DNA of 64,000 bases from Kiritimatiellia bacterium. GTDB lineage: Bacteria; Verrucomicrobiota; Kiritimatiellia; RFP12; UBA1067. Below, piece by piece: positions 15,333-55,501 of the stretch. The position numbers and the translations under genes are program-made. The notes below the pieces were generated by a model. It was not told where the DNA came from. It ran no database searches and saw nothing but the letters and a program-made list of their open reading frames with translations. Location of the stretch: contig JAFSTA010000084.1 in assembly GCA_017450695.1 (NCBI GenBank), positions 34,474 to 98,473 of the forward strand, in the 5' to 3' direction. Numbering within the stretch: position 1 is the stretch's first letter; each line of letters starts with the position of its first letter.

Positions 15333-17345
15333 ATGACGATCTTGTTGACATCCCTTGTCTTGGCAGCCTCTTGGCCACAGCCGACAGCCGAAATGAAACC
15401 GTGGGCATACAACTGGTGGATGGGTTCTGCCGTTGACAAAAAGGGATTGGAGTTCCAATGCTCCGAAATGGCAGACAAAGGGTTCGGAGGTTTCCATGTC
15501 ATTCCGATCTACGGCGCGAACGGTCCGGAAAACTGTTACCGCAAGCAATGGAAGGAACTGCTTTCCCCCGATTGGATCGAGGCATGGAACCTGGCGGCAC
15601 AAACCGCTCGTTCACGGGGTCTCGGCATCGACCTCACGATGGGGGCTGGCTGGTGCTTCGGTGGCCCGTGGATCGACAAGGAACACGCGGCCAGCTCCGG
15701 CATGAAGGTGAAACGTGCGGGCCCCGGCGGACAAGGCTATATGATCGACCCGTTTTCTCCGGCGGCGATGTCCAACCACGTGGCGCGTTTTGACGCCGTG
15801 TTCGGGAAAGGCGGTACGGCAGAACGTCCCCGCGCATTCTACCACGACAGCTACGAATACTACGGCGCGATTCCGAAACACGGGGAAGACGTGGATGAAT
15901 CGTTGCTCGCCTGTTTCCAGGTCTGGACCGACTGGTGCCGCGCAAACGGATACCTCTCGCGTAACGAGGCGCACGGCGCCCCGGCGAACTGGCTCGACTT
16001 CTACGCGCTTGCCGACATCCCCGAAACGGAAATGTTCGGCAAGAAAGACCGCGATATCCTAATCTCCAAATTCGCCTCTTCCGTCGCGCACGTCAAGGGC
16101 ACGAGGCTCGTCAGCGCCGAGAGCTGCACGTGGATCGACGAACATTTCTGCGAACGCCCCTCCGAAATCAAGGTTTTCCTCGACAAGCTTTTCCTCGCAG
16201 GGGTGAACCACGTCTTTTATCACGGGCTTTGTTATTCGCCGGTCGATGCTCCCTGGCCCGGATGGTGTTTCTACGCCTCGCTGGAGATGAACCCGCGCAA
16301 TCCGATCTGGCGCGAAGTCGCCGCAATCAACGCCTATGTGACGCGCTGCCAATCGATCTTCCAGACCTGGACTCCCGCGAATGACCTGCTGGTGGTGTGG
16401 GATCCGACTCGCTACCGCAAAAAGCCCGGCAACGCCTGTAAACAGATGAGCGTACACAACAACGACTGGTTCTACGGGGAACCGATCGGAAAGACCGCGA
16501 AACGCCTCTATGAAGCGGGGTTCTGTTTCGACTATGTTTCGCGGCGGCAGCTGCGCGAACTTTCTCTCGCGCGGTATGCAGAGACAATTGATCCGGAGAA
16601 GAACGAATGGCCGAAGATCGTGAAGCCTTGCCCATTCACAGCCGCGACCGGTATCCAGGCGACGCGCTGGACGAAAGACGGACAAACCCTCTACTTTGTC
16701 GTGAACACCAGTACTCAAGAAAAGGAAATCCATGCCGGAAAATCCTTCACCGTACTGAATCCGCTATCAGGGAAGATCTCGGAACAAACCTCTGTCCTGA
16801 TTTGTCGGAACCATTCCCTCTTCCTGATCGGCGACGGCTTCACCGTCTCCGATGCGACGAACGAGAAGCGGAACGAACGGGAAATCACGGGTGAATGGAC
16901 TGTGACACCTGTCGTCGGCGGCCCCGAAATGCCAACGCAGAAAACGCTTTCCTCCCTGGTCGGATGGGAGTCGTGGGACGATGCTTTCTCCGGCACGATG
17001 CGGTATGCCATCACCTTTGACGCATCCTCCACGTTCCAGAACCTTTCGCTCGGTGATGTCCGTGAAATCGCGCGGGTACGCCTCAATGGTCAAGACCTCG
17101 GCGTCTGTTTCATGCCGCCGTACCAATACGACATTCCTTCTGGCGCACTGAAGCGAAGCGGAAATCGTCTCGAAATCGAGGTCACGAACCTAGGCGCCAA
17201 TCGTCTGCGCTGGAACGACAGGAACGGCGTAAACTGGAAATACTTCTCCGACATCAACATCGTCGGAAGCAATTACAAGAAGCTCGACGCCTCCACCTGG
17301 CGTCCCCTGCCGTCCGGGCTGCTCGGCCCTGTCACAATCTGGTGA
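15333..17345 (+). CDS. Secreted putative glycoside hydrolase (family not assignable; galactose-binding-like C-terminal domain)
   Basis: Signal peptide MTILLTSLVLAASWPQP. N-terminal KPWAYNWWMG motif. C-terminal RLNGQDLGVCFMPPYQYDI resembles GH sugar-binding beta-sandwich domains. Possibly GH106-like, but that is only a weak recollection. Confidence 0.45.
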   Translation: MTILLTSLVLAASWPQPTAEMKPWAYNWWMGSAVDKKGLEFQCSEMADKGFGGFHVIPIYGANGPENCYRKQWKELLSPDWIEAWNLAAQTARSRGLGIDLTMGAGWCFGGPWIDKEHAASSGMKVKRAGPGGQGYMIDPFSPAAMSNHVARFDAVFGKGGTAERPRAFYHDSYEYYGAIPKHGEDVDESLLACFQVWTDWCRANGYLSRNEAHGAPANWLDFYALADIPETEMFGKKDRDILISKFASSVAHVKGTRLVSAESCTWIDEHFCERPSEIKVFLDKLFLAGVNHVFYHGLCYSPVDAPWPGWCFYASLEMNPRNPIWREVAAINAYVTRCQSIFQTWTPANDLLVVWDPTRYRKKPGNACKQMSVHNNDWFYGEPIGKTAKRLYEAGFCFDYVSRRQLRELSLARYAETIDPEKNEWPKIVKPCPFTAATGIQATRWTKDGQTLYFVVNTSTQEKEIHAGKSFTVLNPLSGKISEQTSVLICRNHSLFLIGDGFTVSDATNEKRNEREITGEWTVTPVVGGPEMPTQKTLSSLVGWESWDDAFSGTMRYAITFDASSTFQNLSLGDVREIARVRLNGQDLGVCFMPPYQYDIPSGALKRSGNRLEIEVTNLGANRLRWNDRNGVNWKYFSDINIVGSNYKKLDASTWRPLPSGLLGPVTIW

Positions 17346-17538
17346 TCCGCGGCTTCTCGCCCCGGAAAACTCAATCAGTGGCACTCGCAATTCCCCTGTT
17401 GATACTCTTAGCCGAAAAGATCACAAAGGCTGAATGGCTTTTGGCTTTTAGCCCCCGCTCACGCCATGCGCGAGTGATTCGATTCATGCTGTACGCACGC
17501 CGGAGGTTGAAGTTTTAGCCGAGGTTGAAATGGCATTG

Positions 17539-17589
17539 TGATTTGTGACATTGTTGGCATTTGTGAACATTTGAGATTTGTGAACAATG
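17539..17589 (+). promoter_or_regulatory. Three direct repeats of ATTTGTGA(A)CA spaced ~17 bp, ~170 bp upstream of the FGE-paralog cluster
   Basis: gtgATTTGTGACAttgttggcATTTGTGAACAtttgagATTTGTGAACAatg read directly. The TGTGA half-site resembles CRP/FNR-type operators. Confidence 0.3.
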
Positions 17590-17756
17590 AAGTTCTAGAC
17601 GAGCTGGTAGCGGGTAGCTGTCGGATGAGAGCTACCGACCACAGCAGCTAGACTTCCCGCCGCTATGCGTTTGACAAGAGCGGCGCAAAAATGATATGGT
17701 AGATACGTCCATTTGATCAACTGTATCTTCGCTTTGAGGCGAAAGGAACATACCGT

Positions 17757-19088
17757 ATGAACAGAACGATCCTGATCCCGACGTTCATGATGCTATTCAC
17801 CGCAACGGCGTTCTCCGTCCCCGGTGTCTCCGCTGTCGAGGTGTTTCCGCCCGACCCTGCGCTGGGCACGGTACGGGTTACCTACTCTCTCGCAAACCCG
17901 CCCGCCATTGTCACCGCCGAACTTTTCGAGAACGGCGTCGCACTGCCGGACGAGGCGCACACCTATCTCGACGGTGATGTCAACCGTTACGTCACCAACA
18001 CCGCCTGCTCCTTCACCTGGGATCCGCGTCACGCGTGGCCGGGACACAGGATGGACGGTACTCTCACGGTACGCGTCACGGCGCATACCTTAGCCGATCC
18101 GCCTCTCTATTGCGTGGTGGATCTCTCGCACGGTTCGGAAGGCGACGCATTCCCCCTGGAGTTCTACACCAGTTCCAACGCCGTGCCAGACGGCGTGACC
18201 GCCGAGTGTTACAAGCGGCAGAAACTCATCCTCCGCAAAATCCCACGCACGGGAGCGGATGGATTTCTGATGGGCGCCCCCGAGTTCGAGGGAAGCAGGG
18301 ACGCGATCCGCGAAAAACAGCATCGTGTGATTCTGACGCGAGATTTCTACATGGGCGTCTTCGAGGTGACACAAGAACAGTTCCGCCGCATCTGCGGCGA
18401 ACAAATCTTGGGCACGAGATTTCAGACGATACACACGGAAAACGCACCCGAAAACTACACCTCGATGAATCCCGTTCTGCCGATGGACACCAACAATTTC
18501 GCCATGATCCGCGGTTCGGTCGCCGACGGAATCGACTGGCCAGCGACCGGATACACGGTCAAGGAAAATTCTTTTATGGATATCCTGCGTCGCAAGACGG
18601 GCAATCTTCTGTTGTTCGACCTGCCGACTGACGCCCAGTGGGAATACGCGGCTCGCGCAGGTAACATGGGATCCTACCCTTCGGGTGACCTATGGATGTA
18701 CACGCAGGCGAACGGGGAATCCTGGAACGACGTGATTGAAAGGGGCAACTCGAACTACGTGGGGAAAATCGGCGCGTTTGTCAATTTTCAAGGATCCCAC
18801 ATCGGGTATCCCCTGCCCGTCGGATCGTTGCGTCCGAACGCATGGGGACTCTACGATGTCTGCGGCAACATCTACGAGCGTGTGCTAGACTGGGTGGATC
18901 GGCAAAACAGTCTGACGAATGCGGTGGATCCCGTCGGAACCGACGCGGAACATGTTTACCGCGTCTTCCGTGGAGGATCCTACAATTACAGTCTCGCCGA
19001 TATCCGCCTTCCCCGCCGTTCCGCCGAATCGCCCGACCGTTGCACCGGCTATATCGGATTTCGTATCGCCGCGACCATCGTTGAATGA
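17757..19088 (+). CDS. Secreted FGE-sulfatase-fold (SUMF1/PF03781) domain protein, paralog 1, with N-terminal ~130 aa beta-rich domain
   Basis: Signal peptide. FGE-fold motifs RTGADGFLMGAPEFEGSRDAIREKQHRVILTRDFYMGVFEVTQEQF, LPTDAQWEYAARAG, NAWGLYDVCGNIYERVLDW, RVFRGGSYNY, GFRIA. Only one Cys where active FGE has the CxxxxC pair. Confidence 0.75.
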   Translation: MNRTILIPTFMMLFTATAFSVPGVSAVEVFPPDPALGTVRVTYSLANPPAIVTAELFENGVALPDEAHTYLDGDVNRYVTNTACSFTWDPRHAWPGHRMDGTLTVRVTAHTLADPPLYCVVDLSHGSEGDAFPLEFYTSSNAVPDGVTAECYKRQKLILRKIPRTGADGFLMGAPEFEGSRDAIREKQHRVILTRDFYMGVFEVTQEQFRRICGEQILGTRFQTIHTENAPENYTSMNPVLPMDTNNFAMIRGSVADGIDWPATGYTVKENSFMDILRRKTGNLLLFDLPTDAQWEYAARAGNMGSYPSGDLWMYTQANGESWNDVIERGNSNYVGKIGAFVNFQGSHIGYPLPVGSLRPNAWGLYDVCGNIYERVLDWVDRQNSLTNAVDPVGTDAEHVYRVFRGGSYNYSLADIRLPRRSAESPDRCTGYIGFRIAATIVE

Positions 19089-19100
19089 GGAGAACGTGAC

Positions 19101-20402
19101 ATGAAAAAATGTGAAATCATCTTCCTTTGCCTCTGCGTAACCAGTCTTCTTGCCAACACGCCTTCGATTGAAACCGTGGAGCTTTCTCTCTCCGCCCGTC
19201 CCGGCGAAGTGGTCGTCAACTACACGCTCGCCAACCCGCCAGCCATCATCACGGCCGCGTTTACGGCAAACGGCGAACGACTCCCCGACACCGCGAGCTG
19301 GTACATGTTGGGTGATGTCAACACGATCGTCACCAATTCCTCCGGTTCGTTCACCTGGAATTATCGGAACACGGTCACGAACCTGGAGACACCCAACCTC
19401 TCCGTCACGCTCACGGCGTGGACACTTGAGGCACCTCCGTTATACTGCTGCATCGATCTTTCCGAGGGACCGAACGCAACGGCCTATCCGTTGGAGTTCT
19501 ACACCAGTTCCAACGCCGTACCGGGAGGTGTCCCCTCCGACACGTACAAAACGGGCAAGATGCTTTTCCGGCGAATTCCGCGTAGCAGCGACGACGGGTT
19601 CACGATGGGATCGCCCGCCAGCGAATCGGGACGCAACGCCGCACGAGAGGCCCAGCGCAACGTGGTACTGACACACGACTTCTACCTGTCCGTCTATGAA
19701 TGTACGCAAGAGCAATGGCAGCGCATCACGGGAAGTTACGGGTTTTCCCACCTTGTGGATGAGATCTCCACCTGGCCGTTCTCTCCGCGGCGTCCGGCGG
19801 AGAATGTGAGCGTCGTCAACATTCGGGGATCTCGCGGCGAGGGCGTCAACTGGCCATCCACAACCAACCATGTCGCATCCGGATCCGTTGCGGGAAAGCT
19901 ACGCGCACGAACCGGCAACATCTACCTTTGGGACCTGCCGACAGAGGCGCAGTGGGAGTACGCCTGCCGCGCCGGCACGACGGGCAGCAGTTACGACGCC
20001 ACGCTTTCCCTCTCCGAAATGGCGGTGTACGGCAGGAATCAGGGCCTCGACAAACCTCCGTCCGTCGATGGCACCCAGATCGTCGGCACCAAGGTTCCCA
20101 ACGCATGGGGACTCTACGACATGCTTGGTAACGTAATGGAATGGTGTAACGACTGGCGTCAGGAAGACACCTCCAACCTACCCCGCGTCAACCCCGTCGG
20201 TCCCAACGAGTTCACGGACGCACAAGGAGTCTATTACCGCATCGCGCGCGGCGGTGGACACAATTACAGCAGCGGTTCCGTGCGTCCCGCGCACCGGAAC
20301 TCTTGGGATGACACCAAATGTAATCAGGCATGGGGATTCCGCTTCTCCGCGACGCTCGGTGCGCACTGGGACACCTCCACCACGCCCCCCACTCTCTACT
20401 AA
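19101..20402 (+). CDS. Secreted FGE-sulfatase-fold domain protein, paralog 2
   Basis: Same architecture as 17757..19088 (VVNYTLANPPAIITAAF N-domain; NAWGLYDMLGNVMEWCNDW; RIARGGGHNY; GFRFSATL). Starts 12 nt after paralog 1. Confidence 0.75.
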   Translation: MKKCEIIFLCLCVTSLLANTPSIETVELSLSARPGEVVVNYTLANPPAIITAAFTANGERLPDTASWYMLGDVNTIVTNSSGSFTWNYRNTVTNLETPNLSVTLTAWTLEAPPLYCCIDLSEGPNATAYPLEFYTSSNAVPGGVPSDTYKTGKMLFRRIPRSSDDGFTMGSPASESGRNAAREAQRNVVLTHDFYLSVYECTQEQWQRITGSYGFSHLVDEISTWPFSPRRPAENVSVVNIRGSRGEGVNWPSTTNHVASGSVAGKLRARTGNIYLWDLPTEAQWEYACRAGTTGSSYDATLSLSEMAVYGRNQGLDKPPSVDGTQIVGTKVPNAWGLYDMLGNVMEWCNDWRQEDTSNLPRVNPVGPNEFTDAQGVYYRIARGGGHNYSSGSVRPAHRNSWDDTKCNQAWGFRFSATLGAHWDTSTTPPTLY

Positions 20403-20413
20403 GGACCTCCGAC

Positions 20414-21655
20414 ATGAAACACCCGATGATGATTTTCCTCTGTGCGGTAACCTTCTCCGCGTCCGCACTTGATTTACCCGAAATCCTCGATGTTTCCCTC
20501 GGGCACAAACTTCCCGCTTCCCGATCGCTGGTGGTGGACTACACCCTGACGAACGGCCCGGCCATCGTCACAGCCACCTTCTTTACCAACAACATCCCTT
20601 TGCCGGACAACGTTGTCACCTCGCTCACCGGAGACATCTGCCGGATCGTGACGAACGGCGCATGCCGTTTCGTCTGGGACGCGCCGACGGACTGGCCCGG
20701 GCATCAAGGTATCCTCCCGCTGACGAAGGTAACGATTGCAGCGCACCCACTCTACTTTCCGCCGCGTTATTGTCATATCGACCTCTCTGGCGGAACAGGG
20801 GCAACCAGCTACCCGCTTTATTTCTACGAGTCCAGCAACGCCATTCCAGGCGGCGTCGAAAGCGACCGCTACAAAACGACGGATCTGCTGCTGCGCAAGA
20901 TCGACCGCACGGGATCGGGCGGCTTCCTGATGGGGTCGCCCCCGTGGGAGTCCAACCGCAACTCCAGACGCGAACGCCAGCACACGGTTGTCCTGACGCA
21001 AGACTACTTCATGGGCGTCTATGAGGTGACCGTCGGGCAGTGGCAGCGCGTGATGGGAACCAGCGTACAGCCCAACCACACGGGCGACGAACGATACCCG
21101 ATGGAGAAAGTGACCTACGGCGAATGTCGCGGGGCGCGTTCGGAAAACATCGACTTCCCGACCACGGGCTTGCGCGTCTCACCCTCCTCCTTCGCGGGCG
21201 TCCTCAGGCAAAAGACGGGTAACATCTATCCCTTCGACCTGCCGACCGAAGCGCAGTGGGAGTATGCGGCACGCGCCGGTATCCTCGATTCTTTTTCCGA
21301 CGGTTCCACGATGGGCTGGCGATCCGCCACACAGCAGAGGGGAAAAGTGCATTTCAACACGAACTCGACAATCGTCGTCGGCAGTTACCTGCCCACGCAA
21401 TGGGGACTCTACGATGTACAGGGGAATGTGGTCGAATGGTGCCGCGACTGGCTGCTGGACGAGAACCTCCCCGACGCGACGGATCCGGTCGGTCCGTATG
21501 AACAGCAAACCTATCGCTCCGCGCGCGGCGGGCATTGGGATCACGCCATCTACGAGCTTCGCTTCGCGCGACGCAATGCGTGGAACGACACCTCGCGGTA
21601 TAGCACGTTCGGGTTCCGTCTCAGCGCCACCATCATCCCCATCCCGTCCGAATAA
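20414..21655 (+). CDS. Secreted FGE-sulfatase-fold domain protein, paralog 3 (no Cys in the catalytic-loop position)
   Basis: Signal peptide MKHPMMIFLCAVTFSASA. LVVDYTLTNGPAIVTATFF N-domain. TQWGLYDVQGNVVEWCRDW; RSARGGHWDH; GFRLSATI. Starts 11 nt after paralog 2's stop; an upstream in-frame ATG at 20330 overlaps paralog 2 and is unlikely to be the start. Confidence 0.7.
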   Translation: MKHPMMIFLCAVTFSASALDLPEILDVSLGHKLPASRSLVVDYTLTNGPAIVTATFFTNNIPLPDNVVTSLTGDICRIVTNGACRFVWDAPTDWPGHQGILPLTKVTIAAHPLYFPPRYCHIDLSGGTGATSYPLYFYESSNAIPGGVESDRYKTTDLLLRKIDRTGSGGFLMGSPPWESNRNSRRERQHTVVLTQDYFMGVYEVTVGQWQRVMGTSVQPNHTGDERYPMEKVTYGECRGARSENIDFPTTGLRVSPSSFAGVLRQKTGNIYPFDLPTEAQWEYAARAGILDSFSDGSTMGWRSATQQRGKVHFNTNSTIVVGSYLPTQWGLYDVQGNVVEWCRDWLLDENLPDATDPVGPYEQQTYRSARGGHWDHAIYELRFARRNAWNDTSRYSTFGFRLSATIIPIPSE

Positions 21656-21689
21656 GAAAGCAGCAGACCGCAGTTATCCCATCACGCAA

Positions 21690-22010
21690 TGCCCCCGAGA
21701 TTGGGAGGGGCAACGTCCTCGTTGCCCGAATTGGGAGGGTCGCGCCCCGTCGCGACCGCACTGCCCTTGCCTTCGCTGCGGGGAGTCTCGGAGTTGGGGA
21801 GGGTCGCGCCCCGTCGCGACCGCACTGCCCTTGCTTTCGCTGCGGGGAGTCTCGGAGTTTGGGAGGGGCGCGCCCCGTCGCGACCGCACTGCCCTTGCTT
21901 TCGCTGCGGGGAGTCTCGGAGTTTGGGAGGGTCGCGCCCCGTCGCGACCGCTACTGCCCTTGCTTTCGCTGCGGGGAGTCTCGGAGTTTGGGGCGCGCTC
22001 CGTCGCGACC
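21690..22010. repeat. Tandem repeat: ~4.5 copies of a 61-62 bp unit (tgggagggtcgcgccccgtcgcgaccgcactgcccttgctttcgctgcggggagtctcggagtt) with a leading GGGGCAACG..CGTTGCCC hairpin
   Basis: Units read directly and differ by 1-3 SNPs. Each contains the palindrome GTCGCG-cccc-gt-CGCGAC. Related copies (family R3) at 56917..57050. The ORFs listed on both strands here are repeat artefacts. Confidence 0.85.
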
Positions 22011-22102
22011 GCATTGCTTAACCACCTAACTACCACCTAACCAGCCCCCCCTCCCTCAACACCTCTCTTGCGGTCTGTGGTAAAATTCAGTATAATGCCG
22101 CC

Positions 22103-22588
22103 ATGTTTTTCCGAAACAAGAAACGACTACCCCACTCCGTGGAGAAACGGCTGTTCCTCGTTTTGGTTTGCGCGTGCAGTTGGCTTGTACCCGGATGCCA
22201 TTCGCGTCCGACGCCGCCACCGAACCGCAAGCCCATCACGATGACCGTGGTTGTCACGGGATATTGCAGTTGCGGCGAGTGCTGTAACTGGCACTATTCG
22301 TGGTGGGGATTCGGTCCGGCGACAATTTCCAAAGGACCGAACGCGGGAAAACGGAAGAAGGTCGGGCTGACCGCCAGCGGAGTCCAAGCGAGTCCTGGAA
22401 CGATCGCCGCCGACACTTCCGTCATCCCGATGGGATCGATTCTGTACGTCCCCGGATACGGATACGGGAAAGTGCAGGATCGGGGTGGTTCTGTGATCGG
22501 AAAGCACATTGACCTTTGGTTTCCCTCCCATGACCAGGCGAAAAAATGGGGGAAGAAAACATTGACGGTGAAAATCTGGAAACCGTGA
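22103..22588 (+). CDS. 3D-domain (MltA-like) lipoprotein
   Basis: Lipobox-like LVLVCACSWLVPGC. 3D-domain signature VVVTGYCSCGECC...ADTSVIPMGSILYVPGYGYGKVQDRGGSVIGKHIDLWF. Confidence 0.75.
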   Translation: MFFRNKKRLPHSVEKRLFLVLVCACSWLVPGCHSRPTPPPNRKPITMTVVVTGYCSCGECCNWHYSWWGFGPATISKGPNAGKRKKVGLTASGVQASPGTIAADTSVIPMGSILYVPGYGYGKVQDRGGSVIGKHIDLWFPSHDQAKKWGKKTLTVKIWKP

Positions 22589-22616
22589 CACGTCGTTGCG
22601 GAATTAGGACAGCGAG

Positions 22617-24335
22617 ATGAACGAAGAGAAAAAGTTGGAAGGGTCGGACACGAGCCGGCATTTTTTGAAGCAGTGGATTGCGGAGGATGTCGCAGCCGGA
22701 AAAAACGGTGGCGCCGTCGTCACCCGTTTCCCGCCTGAGCCGAACGGATACATCCACATCGGACACGCCAAGGCTGTGAGTATCGATTTCGGCATGGCCA
22801 GCGAATTCGGAGGTGTCTGCCACCTGCGCATGGACGACACGAACCCGGCGAAGGAATCAGACGAATACGCGGAGAATATCCAGCGGGATATCCACTGGCT
22901 GGGATACGACTGGAAGGAGTGCCTCTACAGCGCCTCAGAGATGTTCGAGCAGATGTATTCGATCGCCGAGAATCTGATCCGCAACGGGCAGGCATACTGC
23001 TGCAACCTGACGCAGGAAGAGTGGAAGGAGTATCGCGGCGTCCCGGAACGTCCCGGTACGCCCAGCCCTTCCCGCGACACCCCGCCCGAACGGAATCTGG
23101 AGATCTTCCACCGGATGAAGGCGGGCGAGTTCGCGGATGGGGAATGGTGCGTTCGCGCGAAGATTGACATGGCCTCGCCAAACATCCATTTCCGCGATCC
23201 CGTCATCTACCGTATCCGCCACGTTCCGCATTACCACAAAGGCGACGAATGGTGCATTTATCCGATGTACGATTTCGCGCACCCGATTGAAGACGCGCTC
23301 GAAGGCGTCACGCACTCCATGTGTACGCTTGAGTTCGAGGTTCACCGTCCCCTGTATAACTGGGTGATCGACCGCATGGACGAGATGGGGCTGTTGCGCG
23401 AACACAACGGCGTGAAAATCCGTCCGCAGCAGCGCGAGTTCGCACGGTTGAACTTGAACTACACCGTGATGAGCAAGCGCAAGCTGTTGCAGCTGGTTGA
23501 GGAAAAACGTGTTTCCGGCTGGGACGACCCGAGGATGCCGACGGTCTGCGGATTGCGTCGGCGCGGCTACACGCCCAAATCCATCCGCGATTTCTGCGAA
23601 CGGATCGGTGTTTCCAAATACGAAAGCGAAACGGATCTCTCCCTGCTGGAATACTGCGTGCGCGACGACCTCAACAAAACCTCGCAGCGCCGCATGGTCG
23701 TGCTCGACCCGGTCAAGGTCGTGATCGACAACTGGCCAGCCGGGAAAGTGATCGAGGTGGAAGTCGCGAACAACCCGGAGAATCCAGAGGACGGAACGCG
23801 CAAAATCCCCTTCAGCGGAGAGGTGTGGATCGAACGCGCCGATTTCATGGAAGTGCCGGAAAAGAAATTTTTCCGACTCGCCCCGGACCGTGAGGTGCGT
23901 CTCCGCGCCGCCGCGCTCTTCACCTGCAAAAGTCTGGTCAAGGACGAGAACGGCAAGATCATCGAGATTCACGGAACCTACGACGAATCCGCCGAGTACG
24001 GGAATCCCGCCGACGGCAGGAAGATCAAGGGGACGATTCACTGGGTCAGCGTCCAACACGCGAAGCCGATTGAAGTCAGGCTTTATGATCGGCTCTTCAC
24101 CGTCCCGAATCCTCTCGACCAGGGAGATCAGGACTTCATCCAGTTCTTGAATCCAGATTCGTTGAAGGTCGTCACCGGATACGCGGAACCGTCCGTTCTC
24201 GATGCGAAGCCAGGTGAACGCTTCCAGTTCGAGCGTGTCGGTTACTTCTGCGCCGACAGCGAAGACTCGAAGCCGGGGATACCGGTCTTCAATCGGACAG
24301 TCACCCTGAAAGATTCCTGGGCAAAGGGCAAGTAA
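22617..24335 (+). CDS. glnS: Glutaminyl-tRNA synthetase
   Basis: Class I HIGH motif FPPEPNGYIHIGHAKA, VMSKRK (KMSKS), GlnRS-specific regions (RIRHVPHYHKGDEWCIYPMYDFAHPIEDALEGVTHSMCTLEF). Confidence 0.9.
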   Translation: MNEEKKLEGSDTSRHFLKQWIAEDVAAGKNGGAVVTRFPPEPNGYIHIGHAKAVSIDFGMASEFGGVCHLRMDDTNPAKESDEYAENIQRDIHWLGYDWKECLYSASEMFEQMYSIAENLIRNGQAYCCNLTQEEWKEYRGVPERPGTPSPSRDTPPERNLEIFHRMKAGEFADGEWCVRAKIDMASPNIHFRDPVIYRIRHVPHYHKGDEWCIYPMYDFAHPIEDALEGVTHSMCTLEFEVHRPLYNWVIDRMDEMGLLREHNGVKIRPQQREFARLNLNYTVMSKRKLLQLVEEKRVSGWDDPRMPTVCGLRRRGYTPKSIRDFCERIGVSKYESETDLSLLEYCVRDDLNKTSQRRMVVLDPVKVVIDNWPAGKVIEVEVANNPENPEDGTRKIPFSGEVWIERADFMEVPEKKFFRLAPDREVRLRAAALFTCKSLVKDENGKIIEIHGTYDESAEYGNPADGRKIKGTIHWVSVQHAKPIEVRLYDRLFTVPNPLDQGDQDFIQFLNPDSLKVVTGYAEPSVLDAKPGERFQFERVGYFCADSEDSKPGIPVFNRTVTLKDSWAKGK

Positions 24336-33710: not shown

Positions 33711-36700
33711 ATGTCATACAAATTGTTTGCGCAGGTGTTTGCGGCGGTTGCGGGAATTTGCATCTCGACGACGCCGTCGTTCGGCGGGCTGGTGGCGAAG
33801 TGGGACTTCAACAACTACGATCCGACGAACCCGACGGCGACGAACATCCTCGCGGCGACTGTCGGCGACGCGGGTAAGCCTTGTTATTATTACGTGAACA
33901 ATTCACCCAAGTGAACCGCGCTCGTGACGGATGGCACGCTCGGGCAGATGTACGTGGTTGCGCCCGACTATACCGGTTCTGATGCGGTCGTCACCAATGC
34001 CGCCGCAGGTCTCGGGGAAGGCAACTACGCCATCGCGATTCCGAAGTACTCGCATGTCGCCCTGCCGATTCCCGATGCCGTGAAGAACCACGTCTGGACG
34101 ATGAAGATACGCTTTTACCGGGCGGACTCGTCCTTCGAGACCCTGTTCAACCGCAACGGTAACACGACCGACGGGGATCTCTTCATCCGCAACAACAGAA
34201 CCGTCAGCGGAAAACTGGCGGACAGCGTCGGCGGCGGCAAGTTCGCCGGGTCCAACAATTACAAGACTCCTGTTTCGAGCGGTGTCTGGCACACGCTGAC
34301 GATCTCCGTCGGCGAGCAGCGCTGGGACGTGTACCTGGATGAAACGACGTTGTGTACGTACAATAACAGCGGAGAGCGGAAAACCTATTTCGCCGACAGC
34401 GACGAACCCCTCAAGGATATCGACGGAGTCGGCCATCTTCTCCTGTGCGCCGACGACGACGGCGAGGACGGGCTTCTGTACATCGACTACGTGGAGCTGT
34501 ACGACGAGGCGTCCGTTTACGAGGGCAAGCTGCCGCACTACTCGAAGGCGGGCTTGATGGGCGAGTGGACGTTTCCCGTCGCCAATCCCGTCAAGGCGAC
34601 AGTCGGGCGCGACCTCGTGAAGCATACGCATGACGGACAAACCGTCAGCTTTGCCGAGGCGACAGACGGCGTTCTTCCCGGCGACGGGTACGTCCGCGCC
34701 GGGCGGTACAACGACTTCATCTGCTACCACGGACTTCCGGCCAACAGCAGTTACACCGTGGTGATGGACGTTCGCGTGCCGCGCAATCCCAACGGTACGC
34801 AACAGTGGCATTCCCTGTTCTCGGCGAACGATTCGCAGGACGCATCCGTCTTCATTCAGTACAAGAACAGCAAGCTCAACATCCGCTCCTCCGGCGACAA
34901 GACCGTCGCAATGGGTGTCGCGTTTGACGAATGGCGCGCGTCGCCATCGCGTACACGAACAATATCAAAAAAATCATGTACGTGAACGGCAAGATGAACC
35001 ACGAAAGCACCGTGCGCCAGGACCGCATGAAGACAACCAAAGGCGGACACTTCTCCCTTCTCGGCGACAATGACGGCGAGGATTTCGAAGTCGATATCTC
35101 CTACGCGGCAATCTACGACCGCATGTTGACGGCAGCCGAGATCGCTGAACTCCATTCGCGTCCGCTCGCGCAACGCGCAGACGAGTCGTTCGTGCCCACG
35201 CTCGCCCCTGCGGGCGTGTGGGTGGCCGACGGCAACGGCGGCCTGGCGACCTCGAAGGGGATGCCGCTCACAGCGGTGGGCAACGGCTACACCTGGACGC
35301 GCACAGCGGTGACGAATGTCGCCACGTATGTCGCCGACATCACGCTTCCCGCCGTGCAGACGGACGGCGGCGTGCTGGCCATGAACGTGAGCGGCGTCGC
35401 CTCCGGCATCTACGGCACGGGCAGCACCTACTCCGGCAGTTTCACCACGACGACCTCCGCCGGCAATTTCCTCGCCAACACCACGGTGGGCAAGTGGGGT
35501 TACTGGACCGAGAACGCACTCGACCGCACGTACCCGCACCGTGTGGCGGTAACATGGGCGGCGAACGGACGCGTCCACTACTATGTTGACGGACGTCCGT
35601 GGGGACAGATCACTCCCACGGACGGCGACACTTCGCTCCAGCCATCGGACACGATGACGTTCCTGGACGGTCTCGCGTCGGGCGTGACGAGGTTCGCCGC
35701 CTACGACGCGACGTTGACGCCAGATGAGGTGGCCGCGCTCGGCGGCGCGGGCACGTCTTTCTCCGGCAACGCGCCCAACGCGCCGACGGTTTCGGCGACG
35801 GTTCCAGCCGATCCCGTGAAGGCGCTCGTCGATCCCGTGACGTTCACCGTGTCGGGAACGCATCCGGACGGCGAGTACATCTCGTTCGCGATCGACTTCG
35901 GCGACGGCACGGGAGACTGCACGTCCGAACTCGTCCCCTCCGGTTCGTCCGTGACGTTCTCGCACAAGTACATCGCCGTCGGGACGATGACGCCCCGCGT
36001 AAAGACGATCTCGCAGAACGACGTGGAAAGCGCGTGGACATCGCTGGCGACGCCGTTCGAGGTCGTGAGCGTCTCCGTCGCGGCTCGCGACGTACTGCTC
36101 ACCTGGCCGTGGCAGCAGAACGTCTATACGAACCGCTTCACGATTATGTGCGAGGGCGTGAAGGACACGGAGGACGCGACGCGCTGGGACGGCCTGGAAG
36201 TGCAGTACGGCGCGGGCTACGCGCAACATGCAACGATGTCGCGCGTGGAGGGGAACGGAACCACATGGATCTACACCGCGCACATCACAATCGACGGCGC
36301 GGACGGACAGACCATCCCCTACCGCCTCGGATACTATGGTCTTCCGCTCACATTCGACGACCCGGCAGACGACACCGCCGGTACGGTGAAGTTGTGGTCG
36401 CAAGACGAGAACGAGTCTTTCACATGCGCCATTTGGGGTGACAACCAGCAGGGTGGAAATACCTACGACTGGGGTTCCGACAAGTTTCTCTACGTGACAC
36501 GCCTTTTCGAACACATGGTTTCGCAAGACGTCGATTTCGGCATCTCGACGGGCGACATGGCGTCCAACGCAAACTACGCGAACGAGATACGTCCCTGTAT
36601 CCTCGACCGCACGGACGCGATCTTCGGCCGCACGCGTCCCTACTATGTGGCGTGGGGCAACCACGACACGGGCTTTCCCGCGAACAAGCCGTACTTCGAG

Positions 36701-39700
36701 ACGGGCGCCGTGGACGAACCCGCCTACGGCACGAGCGCATCGGGCAACTACTACCTCTATCGCGGGAACGTTCTCTTCATTTTCATCGACAACGGTCTGA
36801 TGACCGCCGCCGCCACGCAGACCTGGCTCGCGGACCTGCTCGCCACGGATCGCGCCCGCGCGGCGAAGTTCCGCATCCTCGCGCAGCACGTCCCGTTCTG
36901 GCTTGAGTGCTGGGGCGGACACAACAGTATCGCGCTCCTCGAAACCGCGAAGGCGGGAGGAATCGACCTGGTACTCTCCGGCCATATGCATGGATACGAA
37001 CGTATCCACAAGGACGGCATCGTACAGCTCACGAACGGAGGTGCCGGGTATCTCGACCATCTCGAATCCGTGTCCGTCAGCTACGGCGACGCCACGTTCA
37101 TCGGCGGGCACAGGGACGTGCCCTACCTTTGGGCGCGGCAAAAGAGCACGGACGAGACGAACGTGATCGGACCGGCCGAGCCCGTGCGAATGGGTTGCAT
37201 CCAGAGTTACGGCGAGCTGAAGGTGGACGGCGCGACGCTCACCTACACCGCGCACGGCTTCCACGCGGACGGCAGCTACATCGGCGTGTTCGACGAATTC
37301 TCCCTCACCTCGCGCACCGTCATAGCGACGGCGCCCTCGCCGTCCTCTTCCATCACCTGCGCCGATCCCTCGACCTTCGCGCAGTTCACCTCCGCGTCCG
37401 TCACGAACGCGAAGTGGAAGGAGTACAAGGACGCGGTCGGCGAAGCGTTCACCTACGCGGAAGGCGCGGGCGCCGATCCGGTCGTGAACGTCTCGAAGAA
37501 CGAAATCGAGAAGTTCCTCGTCTGGCTCAACGGCGCAAACGGAGACTACCGTCTGCCGACCGCAGGCGAACTCGAGACGGTGTTCGGCGGTGAACTGCGG
37601 CGTGATGTCGCGGAGTGGACCTCGTCCGTCGATCCCCGCACGGGGTGGTGCCGCATTCTCGGTTCTCCCTTGTGCGCGGCGGACGGCACGTGGTGCCGCG
37701 AAGCAGACAAGCCATCCATCGCGACGGCGGGCTGCCATGCGAACTACCTCGGTTTCCGTCTCGCCACCGGTGCGGCTCCGGCGGAACCGGCGGCGCCCGG
37801 CGCGTCGCTCGCGCCCGCACTCGCGTCTCTGGAACAGATTGCCGCCCCCGCTGCCGTCTATAAGTGGCAGAATAATACCCTCGTCGATATTACGGCGGAG
37901 TGGACGAATCCCGCATCCGACCTCTCTTACCAGGTTCCGGTAATCTTCACGGGCAAGGGCGTGATCTCGAACAACCCGACGGCATTCAACGTCACGTTCC
38001 ACGCCGGACTGGCCGCGCCATATTCGACACAACTCGTCAAGAGCGGCGAAGGCGCACTTACGGTCAAGGGCGTGGTCAAAGGCGGCGTGTGCGACTCCGA
38101 GGGCGGATGGGTAATCGCCTCCGAGGGACCGCTCTCGTTCGAGGATGTCGTGTTCGCCGGGCAGGGCGTACAGTTCCGTTCGGGCGACCGCGCACTGCTG
38201 CTGAAGGGCGACAACGACTTCTCCGGCGCGGACATCTTCCTCAACGGCGCGAACAACAACTGCACGAACTACGTAGCCTCTTCAACGCCAGCGACATTCC
38301 GTGCGCGGCGCATAACGAACAAGGGCGCGAATCCGTCTGGCATTGGCGAGAACCTCTCTCTGATCCTCTCCAAGGACATTCGGTTCAGTGGCGGGTACAC
38401 GATGCACATCGATGGTTCGCTGGACGCGGAGGCGTTCAACATGTTCACCAATAACGACCCGTGGCTGTTCGGAGCCGGCACATTGCGCGTCGGGTATTTC
38501 GGGACGTACGACCACTCGTGGATTCGGCTCGCCGTGTCGAACGCCGTATTCACCACGGCGCGTCCGCTCCGCTCCAACCATGAGAAATACTATTCAGGCG
38601 TTCTTCGTGGCAGGGGATGTCGTGCGCCTGTCCTCCACCTGCGACTGGGAGATCGGCGAGAAAGACAACTTCGGAAAACCCGTTTACATTCTTGCGAATA
38701 CCACGCATGCCGCCCGTCCTAAGCTCGTGATCGAGGGGACGCACGACGTCCTCTATGCGCCTACAGCATCCGTCGGATCCTACGACACCACGAGTAGTTA
38801 CACCGCCCCCTGGGACGTAGAAATGGCCGGAACAGGGACCGTAACGGTCAAGACGCCGACGCAGGGCGACATCAACGTGTCGAACGGCACGGTGAAGATT
38901 TCCGCCCTGCCGTGTGCAGGGATTACCTCGACCTCCGGCACCGGCAATTGGTCGATCGACGAAACGCTCTCACTTTCGGCGGGGCAGATCGTCCACGGCG
39001 CGTTCGCGACGGGCGGTACCCTCTCCTTCGACTTCGGCGCGAACGGTGCCGGCGAATATGCCGTGCTGGAGGGGTGCGGGCTTTCGGAGGGAGACATCAC
39101 GGTGACGACCTCACTCGACGGCGACAACCAATACACCGTGAGCCGCGACTGGTCCGGCGGGAACCTCACACTGACACTCATGCCCGTCGGCGCTCGGATC
39201 GCCGAATGGACAGGCGGCGGCACGGCCGAGAATCCGTTCGACACGGCGAACTGGCGCGTGACGGACGGAACAGGAACGGAGATTCCAGGCGCCGTGCCGA
39301 ACGCCTCCACGTTCATCCGCCTCGCCGGCGCAACGGCGCTCAGCTTCCCGCAGACGGAGGGATTCACCTACGCCGGGCTGATGCTCACGGATGGCGTCTC
39401 GCTCGTGGCCGACTGCGACTGGAGCGGACTTGGCACGGTCGCGTTCCGCGACGGCACGTGGATCGACCTGCTGGGGCACCGTCTGGACATCACCGGTTTC
39501 ACGGGCGTGACGGCGGGCATGGCAGGCGTGACCGATTCGACGATGGACGCGGAGCATCCGGGCGAACTTCACATCCGCGTCGCGGAAGATGCGACCTTCA
39601 CAAATGACAAAGTCGCGCTGAACGGCAATCTTCGCCTCGTGAAGGAAGGCCTGGGCACGTTTGTGGCGACCAAGGCGAACCAAAAATACACCGGAGGCAC

Positions 39701-53837: not shown

Positions 53838-54311
53838 ATGCCCGAGACCGCCAACAAGATTTTATTCTGTACAGATTTTTCGCAAAATGCGCTTCAGTCG
53901 TTTTCCTATGCGATTCGCGCCACTAAGGAGATTCCCGACGCGCAGCTGGTTCTCTTCCACACGATGCCGGAACCAGACGCGCAATTCTGGAAAGGGTACA
54001 TCTTGGATTCGGATGACGCCATGACGGAGATGAAGCAAAAGATCCACGAGAAGATCGATGCGGAGTATCGCCCGCTCCTGCCACCAGACTGCCCGATGGA
54101 AGTCGTGCTGACCACCGGCGACGCACCGGAGGAGATTCTGCATTACGCGAACCGGGAGAATGTCCGGATGATCGTACTCGGCAGACAAGGGAGCGGCATG
54201 ATCTCCCAATGGCTGATGGGGAATGTCACAGCCCGCGTCGTCCGCAAGGCGAACTGCCCCGTCCTCGTCGTCCCCTTCTCCTTCATCGAAAAACAGAAGC
54301 AGGCCAAATGA
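53838..54311 (+). CDS. Universal stress protein (UspA family)
   Basis: ILFCTDFSQNA...LVLFHTM and C-terminal MIVLGRQGSGMISQWLMGNVTARVVRKANCPVLVVP (Usp ATP-binding tail). AGGAGG RBS upstream. Stop overlaps the next start (ATGA). Confidence 0.75.
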   Translation: MPETANKILFCTDFSQNALQSFSYAIRATKEIPDAQLVLFHTMPEPDAQFWKGYILDSDDAMTEMKQKIHEKIDAEYRPLLPPDCPMEVVLTTGDAPEEILHYANRENVRMIVLGRQGSGMISQWLMGNVTARVVRKANCPVLVVPFSFIEKQKQAK

Positions 54312-55501
54312 TCGGAATCTCGAAGCTTTATCTAGGTACCGTCGAAGTATCCGACCCGTTGCGGTACGGACGTGCGTCCGGCAAACTTCCGAGTCACCTG
54401 CTCCAGTTCTCGAAGGACAAGAAACCTGTCGTCGTGTGGAATGTCACTTCGCGCTGCAACCTGAAATGCGAACACTGTTACGCCGCAGTCCCGAAAGTCC
54501 AGCCGGAGTTGACCGCCGAACAGGCGTTTGCGGTTTTGGACGATCTCGCCGGGTTCGGAGTTCCTGTTGTGTTGTTCTCCGGTGGCGAGCCATTCACCCG
54601 TCCCGATATCCTCGACCTCGCCCGTTATGCGGCCTCGAAGAAGTTACGCGTCGTGTTCTCGACCAACGGGACGCTGATCACGCGCGAAGTCGCGGAGGAA
54701 ATCCAGAAGATCGGCGTTTCGTATGTCGGCATCAGCATCGACGGCGGGCAAGCGGTTCACGACCGTTTCCGTCGCATGGAAGGAGCCTTCCAAGCCGCGC
54801 TCAACGGGATCCGGAACTGCCGCGACGCAGGAATCAAGATCGGTCTCCGCGTCACGATCACTCGTGACAACGTGCAGGAAATCCCGGCGGTGTTCGACCT
54901 CATGGAAACGGAGAAGGTGCCGCGCCTCTGCCTCTATCACCTTGTCTATTGCGGACGCGGCGCGGAAATCGCCGACCATGACCTCACGCCTGAAGAACGT
55001 CGCGCCACGGTGGATCTCATCATCGACCGGACAAAACGCCTGCACGACCTCGGATTCCAGACCGAAGTGTTGACAGTCGATAACCATTGCGACGGTCCCT
55101 ATCTCTATCTGCGGATGTTGCGCGAGGCAAACCCGCGCGCCGGCGATGTATTGTCGCTCCTCCAGATGAACGGCGGCAACAGCACGGGACTCGGGATCGG
55201 CTGCATCAGCTGGGACGGAACCGTCTATCCCGACCAGTTCTGGCGCAACAAACCGCAGGGCAACGTGCTGGAGAAACCATTCAGTGAAATCTGGGGAAAA
55301 CCGCCGGAGGATTCCCTCCTCTGGCAGTTGCGCCACCGGAAGGAACGGATCACCGGACGTTGCGCGAACTGCCGCTTCCATTCCGTCTGCAACGGCAATT
55401 TCCGCGCACGTGCGGAAGCCGCCACGGGTGACATCTGGGCAAGTGACCCGACATGCTATCTAACGGATGAAGAAATCCGAGAACAAGCAACAACCATGTA
55501 A
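54308..55501 (+). CDS. Radical SAM / SPASM-domain enzyme of the NirJ/AhbC/AhbD (heme d1 / alternative heme biosynthesis) family
   Basis: CX3CX2C cluster VVWNVTSRCNLKCEHCY, FSGGEP, STNGTLI, SPASM-like GIGCISWDGTVYPDQFW and CANCRFHSVCNGNFRARAEA, C-terminal DPTCYL. This set matches my recollection of NirJ/Ahb-type proteins rather than anSME. Confidence 0.6.
   Translation: MIGISKLYLGTVEVSDPLRYGRASGKLPSHLLQFSKDKKPVVVWNVTSRCNLKCEHCYAAVPKVQPELTAEQAFAVLDDLAGFGVPVVLFSGGEPFTRPDILDLARYAASKKLRVVFSTNGTLITREVAEEIQKIGVSYVGISIDGGQAVHDRFRRMEGAFQAALNGIRNCRDAGIKIGLRVTITRDNVQEIPAVFDLMETEKVPRLCLYHLVYCGRGAEIADHDLTPEERRATVDLIIDRTKRLHDLGFQTEVLTVDNHCDGPYLYLRMLREANPRAGDVLSLLQMNGGNSTGLGIGCISWDGTVYPDQFWRNKPQGNVLEKPFSEIWGKPPEDSLLWQLRHRKERITGRCANCRFHSVCNGNFRARAEAATGDIWASDPTCYLTDEEIREQATTM

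Follow-up and report, generated by a model that had tools for sequence, protein, structure and literature searches.

Three head-to-tail genes in a Kiritimatiellae genome encode predicted exported proteins which carry the fold of formylglycine-generating enzymes (FGEs) but lack the catalytic cysteine pair. On balance, we favour the reading that the triplet proteins are ligand binders with no enzymatic role, which reuse the scaffold of the variable proteins of diversity-generating retroelements (DGRs) and provide three fixed specificities from one operon. The genes lie in a 64-kb stretch of DNA, which was analysed as a whole and is called the window in the following. They belong to an uncharacterised family in which the Ig-linker-FGE architecture is fixed; its N-domain profile recovers 840 or more clusters (50% identity, E<1e-30).

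Gene organisation, domains and export

All three genes are located on the forward strand: paralog 1 (P1) at 17757..19088 (443 aa), paralog 2 (P2) at 19101..20402 (433 aa, with a 12-residue C-terminal extension) and paralog 3 (P3) at 20414..21655 (413 aa). The gaps of 12 nt (P1-P2) and 11 nt (P2-P3) each contain an SD-like motif, and three genes of ~440 aa spaced by 11-12 nt are what the original prediction had described. In P2, GGAG is found 8-11 nt before the ATG. The mechanical ORF of P3 begins at 20330 and overlaps P2; since AAGGA stands in front of the ATG at 20414 and a signal-peptide-like N-terminus follows it, P3 was taken as 413 aa. P2 and P3 show 44-45% pairwise identity to P1. A consensus scan revealed a promoter-like site, TTGACA-18 nt-TATGGT with TG (17671..17700, forward strand, 10/12 matches), 57 nt 5' of P1. 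This site, as a consensus match alone no proof of function, probably marks the beginning of an operon of three genes. An Rfam scan of 17000-22700 gave no match. A small ORF conserved upstream of related arrays in three loci (L002, L005, L088) is absent from 17346-17756, and the ~680-aa gene downstream of the same arrays has no homolog in the window. The source genome is that of a gut-type member of the Kiritimatiellae.

The FGE-sulfatase domain PF03781 is matched by all three proteins (E 4e-30 for P1, 2.1e-28 for P2 and 2.1e-31 for P3) and was their sole match in the Pfam scan. In the AF2 model of P1 (pLDDT 86.5, pTM 0.88), an Ig-like beta-sandwich (aa 23-114, 17823-18098; sandwich seen at residues 23-110), a conserved linker (aa 115-165, 18099-18251) and an FGE-subtype C-type-lectin fold (aa 166-443, 18252-19085) follow one another, all on the forward strand, behind a signal peptide assigned by heuristics to aa 1-22 (17757-17822, forward strand). 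P2 and P3 have the same architecture. The profile search, the model of P1 and the signal-peptide heuristics agree with the earlier assignment of a signal peptide, a beta-rich N-terminal domain and an FGE-fold C-terminal domain to each protein, and the suspected Ig similarity of the N-terminal domain is seen in the P1 model. A fold common to PvdO, EgtB and similar proteins had also been proposed; in accordance with this, the closest structural matches are PvdO, TvpA and PorK. The top PDB sequence match of P3 is TvpA (2y3c, E 2.5e-14).

Signal peptides were assigned solely by heuristics. Among 95 family members, 94 have K/R within the first ten residues, 92 a hydrophobic core or signal-like N-terminus and 3 a lipobox-like motif, the window's three proteins not being among the latter. 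Expressed from one operon, the triplet would yield three Sec-exported, non-lipidated proteins of ~42-45 kDa, each predicted to join its N-terminal Ig-like beta-sandwich through a conserved linker of ~50 residues to a C-terminal FGE-subtype C-type-lectin fold.

A further FGE copy had been placed at ~37480-37780. PF03781 indeed matches at 37376..37642 (forward strand; 27.5 bits, E 3e-6, profile positions 49-141 of 255), but what is found there is only a truncated, degenerate FGE/CLec-like segment. It lies outside the triplet, inside a 1263-aa Metallophos + Laminin_G_3 ORF (34931..38722), and was missed both by the whole-ORF scan at E<1e-3 and by the family's own C-domain profile.

Absence of the catalytic cysteines

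Alignment to human SUMF1 places Tyr411 of P1, a Tyr of P2 and a His of P3 at Cys336, while Cys341 falls within a 3-residue deletion in all three paralogs. Among 111 family members, the Cys336 column holds Cys in a single protein; at the Cys341 column, 105 members have a gap and none has Cys. The same deletion, common to the paralogs and to these 105/111 members, is present in the Treponema variable protein TvpA. The claim that the catalytic pair is not conserved thus extends to essentially the whole family. The accompanying count of one, one and no Cys is correct downstream of the RGG motif (C429 in P1, C407 in P2, none in P3), but not for the whole proteins, which contain 6, 9 and 6 Cys. Judged from these alignments, the triplet proteins are not catalytic FGEs: they appear unable to make formylglycine because both copper-binding cysteines are gone.

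That the triplet proteins might nevertheless be genuine FGEs which mature sulfatases is suggested by the PF03781 match and by their database names. In view of the two missing cysteines we give this practically no weight. Moreover, the ~30 window ORFs scanned included no PF00884 sulfatase, FGEs not needing to adjoin sulfatases, and cultured Kiritimatiellales are strict anaerobes with anSME, the activity of whose own 'FGEs' was doubted by the authors (PMC6388578). A radical-SAM/SPASM gene at 54209-55501 was considered as an anSME and rejected, being AhbC/NirJ-like and assigned to heme biosynthesis.

FGE-fold binding or scaffold modules devoid of the cysteines have precedents in TvpA, PorK, SUMF2 and Tsi3, and the principle as such is therefore familiar. 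New is the large uncharacterised family with its fixed architecture. Evidence is now given that the numerous family members of strictly anaerobic Kiritimatiellae are no FGEs. This largely resolves the 'paradox' of strict anaerobes with many FGE genes, raised for the cultured strains F1 and F21 (PMC6388578), and points to the database name 'formylglycine-generating enzyme family protein' as a systematic mis-annotation.

Age, recurrence and diversification of the arrays

A 'tandem triplication', as the original prediction called it, suggests a recent event, and this is contradicted by the phylogeny. The window, L004 and L087 loci form a clade with bootstrap 100, within which the three positional orthogroups are recovered with 82, 97 and 87. 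P2 and P3 are 62% and 54% identical to their positional orthologs L004_2 and L004_3. The proposed comparison of divergence, run against the L087 orthologs, gave dN/dS of 0.057 for P1 and 0.088 for P2 (the latter over 283 codons) at dS of ~0.8. The three copies are old, have kept their order and are under purifying selection.

Across Kiritimatiellae, arrays of two or three copies are found repeatedly, and so are fused proteins with two modules. Triplets are present in L001, L002/L003, L004, L005 and L020, pairs in L007, L022, L088 and L090, and (Ig-linker-FGE)x2 fusions make up ~20 of the best 150 N-domain representatives. The model of one fused double (pTM 0.77, built on an alignment of 15 sequences) supports a defined interface between the modules only weakly. 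Deep triplets group by lineage and not by position, and array size ranges from 1 to 3. This fits repeated duplication and lends nothing to an obligate ancient heterotrimer, an idea which we rejected on these grounds.

Does a DGR diversify these proteins? One family member, P0057, has the Ig, linker and FGE parts and is 35% identical to P1 over 100% of its length. Downstream of it, in locus L089, follow an HRDC accessory gene and a reverse transcriptase with a YMDD motif and the motif IGNLTSQ, which we take to be of DGR type. P0057 is the only DGR-linked member found in the family, and its template repeat is off the L089 contig. Treponema-type DGRs have documented HRDC accessory genes, the largest class of DGR targets is of FGE-sulfatase type, and the DGR of T. 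denticola diversifies remote targets (PMC5758913). Given these precedents, the triplet could be the remote target of a DGR elsewhere in the genome which diversifies its tails. The data speak strongly against this, and we consider it exceedingly unlikely. A DGR within the window was rejected: the last ~240 nt of each gene gave only chance-level matches of 11-37 nt when searched against the 64-kb window by blastn, and tblastn of the window with a DGR reverse transcriptase and an HRDC protein yielded no match below E 0.3. At the nucleotide level, the three tails resemble one another only in chance-level matches of 20-37 nt and therefore cannot derive from one TR, and the tail dN/dS against the L087 ortholog is 0.044. 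Self-blast of the gene tails in all loci revealed no TR/VR pairs in other loci of the family; TR/VR-like pairs were obtained only in L044 and L053, both outside the family. DGR-type reverse transcriptase homologs occur in L053 and L068. Two similar tails in L008 were examined as TR/VR and dismissed as ordinary protein-motif conservation.

Within the family, singletons, one of them in a DGR cassette, thus coexist with fused doubles and with arrays of diverged paralogs free of DGRs, so that the family lends itself to studying the encoding of binding-site diversity.

Proposed function and relation to known systems

Among the paralogs, identity is 54-70% in the core, 30% in the tail (405-433), 27-32% in the insert (215-270) and 11-13% in the loop at 303-355, conservation being lowest in the loops around the equivalent of the FGE active site. 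TvpA reportedly has no FGE activity and is presumed to be a ligand binder (PMC5758913). By analogy, ligand binding by the triplet would use the scaffold of DGR variable proteins such as TvpA, in which two long loops and the C-terminal tail, the parts which differ most between the paralogs, would make up the binding surface. Diversity would be hard-wired as three old, separately conserved paralogs instead of being DGR-made. Since fused two-module relatives exist, the three paralogs probably work side by side, possibly as a hetero-oligomer.

As for the ligand, envelope or environmental glycans are our leading guess, because arrays in other Kiritimatiellae lie inside carbohydrate-degradation operons. 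Same-strand genes near these arrays encode GH88, KduI, AXE1, GH92, GH2, GHL10, BNR_2 and AraC regulators; Kiritimatiellae genomes are rich in CAZymes, so such neighbours could be coincidental. The window locus itself gives no clue. A cell-surface or glycan-handling module with the neighbouring CotH, GT4 and GH106-like genes had been suggested, but the flanks of the triplet are not conserved: the upstream neighbour is a queuosine-synthesis gene in L087, the nearest relative (90% aa identity), and an ECF sigma/anti-sigma pair in L004, which leaves the suggested module unsupported. A bolder extension would see a germline-encoded receptor repertoire of C-type-lectin fold in Kiritimatiellae, where arrays and fused doubles replace DGR hypermutation as hetero-oligomeric polysaccharide-capture devices serving adjacent degradation operons. 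Mtd, in which beta-sandwich domains promote trimerisation, would be the model for module assembly. We regard this as speculative and improbable; if true, it would provide a PVC counterpart of SusD-like glycan-binding proteins.

Other functions are conceivable on the same fold. PorK/GldK and GldJ are FGE-fold lipoproteins of the type IX secretion and gliding machinery, and the triplet might likewise form a hetero-oligomeric structural complex of the periplasm or outer membrane, devoid of a soluble ligand. We consider such an envelope scaffold unlikely. The triplet reaches 49-69 bits with the NCBIfam GldK model (cut-off 350) and 21-27 bits with GldJ (cut-off 458), and it differs from these proteins by lacking a lipobox, as nearly all of the family does, and PorL/M/N-type partners. 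No conserved partner genes were found around arrays whose size varies, and type IX secretion is a feature of Bacteroidota and is not known from PVC bacteria. Three periplasmic isozymes with non-FGE chemistry, for instance an oxidoreductase akin to PvdO with a small molecule or a glycan as its substrate, are similarly doubtful. The PvdO model gives 58-72 bits (cut-off 500) and the EgtB model 20-24 bits (cut-off 360). The family-invariant residues sit in DLPTxAQWE, WGLYD-GN-E, RGG and GFR; as these motifs also align with FGE, TvpA and PvdO, we read them as fold-wide and not as a family-specific active site, while the loops around the would-be active site are the least conserved parts. The sole Pfam match being PF03781, there is no DinB domain, and PvdO itself awaits in vitro proof of catalysis (10.1101/2021.05.21.445229).

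Gut bacteria are known to carry immunity genes stacked in tandem with no cognate effector, which brings toxin-neutralising proteins to mind. T6SS immunity proteins of the Tsi3 type are encoded beside the effector to which they bind. Tsi3 homologs are FGE-domain proteins without the catalytic Cys that act by protein-protein binding (10.1101/2021.05.21.445229), and the window's proteins are likewise predicted to be exported and are divergent. An immunity function is nonetheless very unlikely in our judgement, since no T6SS, effector, Rhs or PAAR-type gene was found among the ~30 window ORFs scanned and in related loci, and arrays elsewhere lie within sugar-utilisation operons. The likeness to Tsi3, compared by description only, is limited to export and a Cys-less FGE domain, with no T6SS or effector context seen among the neighbours scanned.

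The triplet differs from each of the known systems closest to it. It has the FGE-sulfatase fold (PF03781) in common with catalytic FGE/SUMF1, whose Cu(I)-binding Cys pair is missing. SUMF2 (pFGE) is an inactive SUMF1 paralogue, whereas the triplet is bacterial, contains an Ig-like domain and occurs in arrays. In the sulfoxide synthases EgtB, OvoA and SenA, an N-terminal DinB-type domain contributes part of the active site; in the triplet, a beta-sandwich occupies the N-terminus. An additional N-terminal domain also distinguishes it from PvdO, the periplasmic pyoverdine maturation protein, and no pyoverdine or siderophore genes were seen among the neighbours scanned. With TvpA of Treponema denticola (PDB 2y3c), the triplet shares the FGE-subtype C-type-lectin fold devoid of FGE catalytic residues. 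TvpA-type systems possess a reverse transcriptase, an accessory gene and a template repeat nearly identical to the C-terminal variable region, none of which is found in the window, and the triplet's tails are under purifying selection. TvpA carries a lipoprotein signal, the triplet an SPI-type signal by heuristics. Beyond the TvpA plan, the triplet adds an Ig-like domain and a linker, and would draw its diversity from three fixed paralogs.

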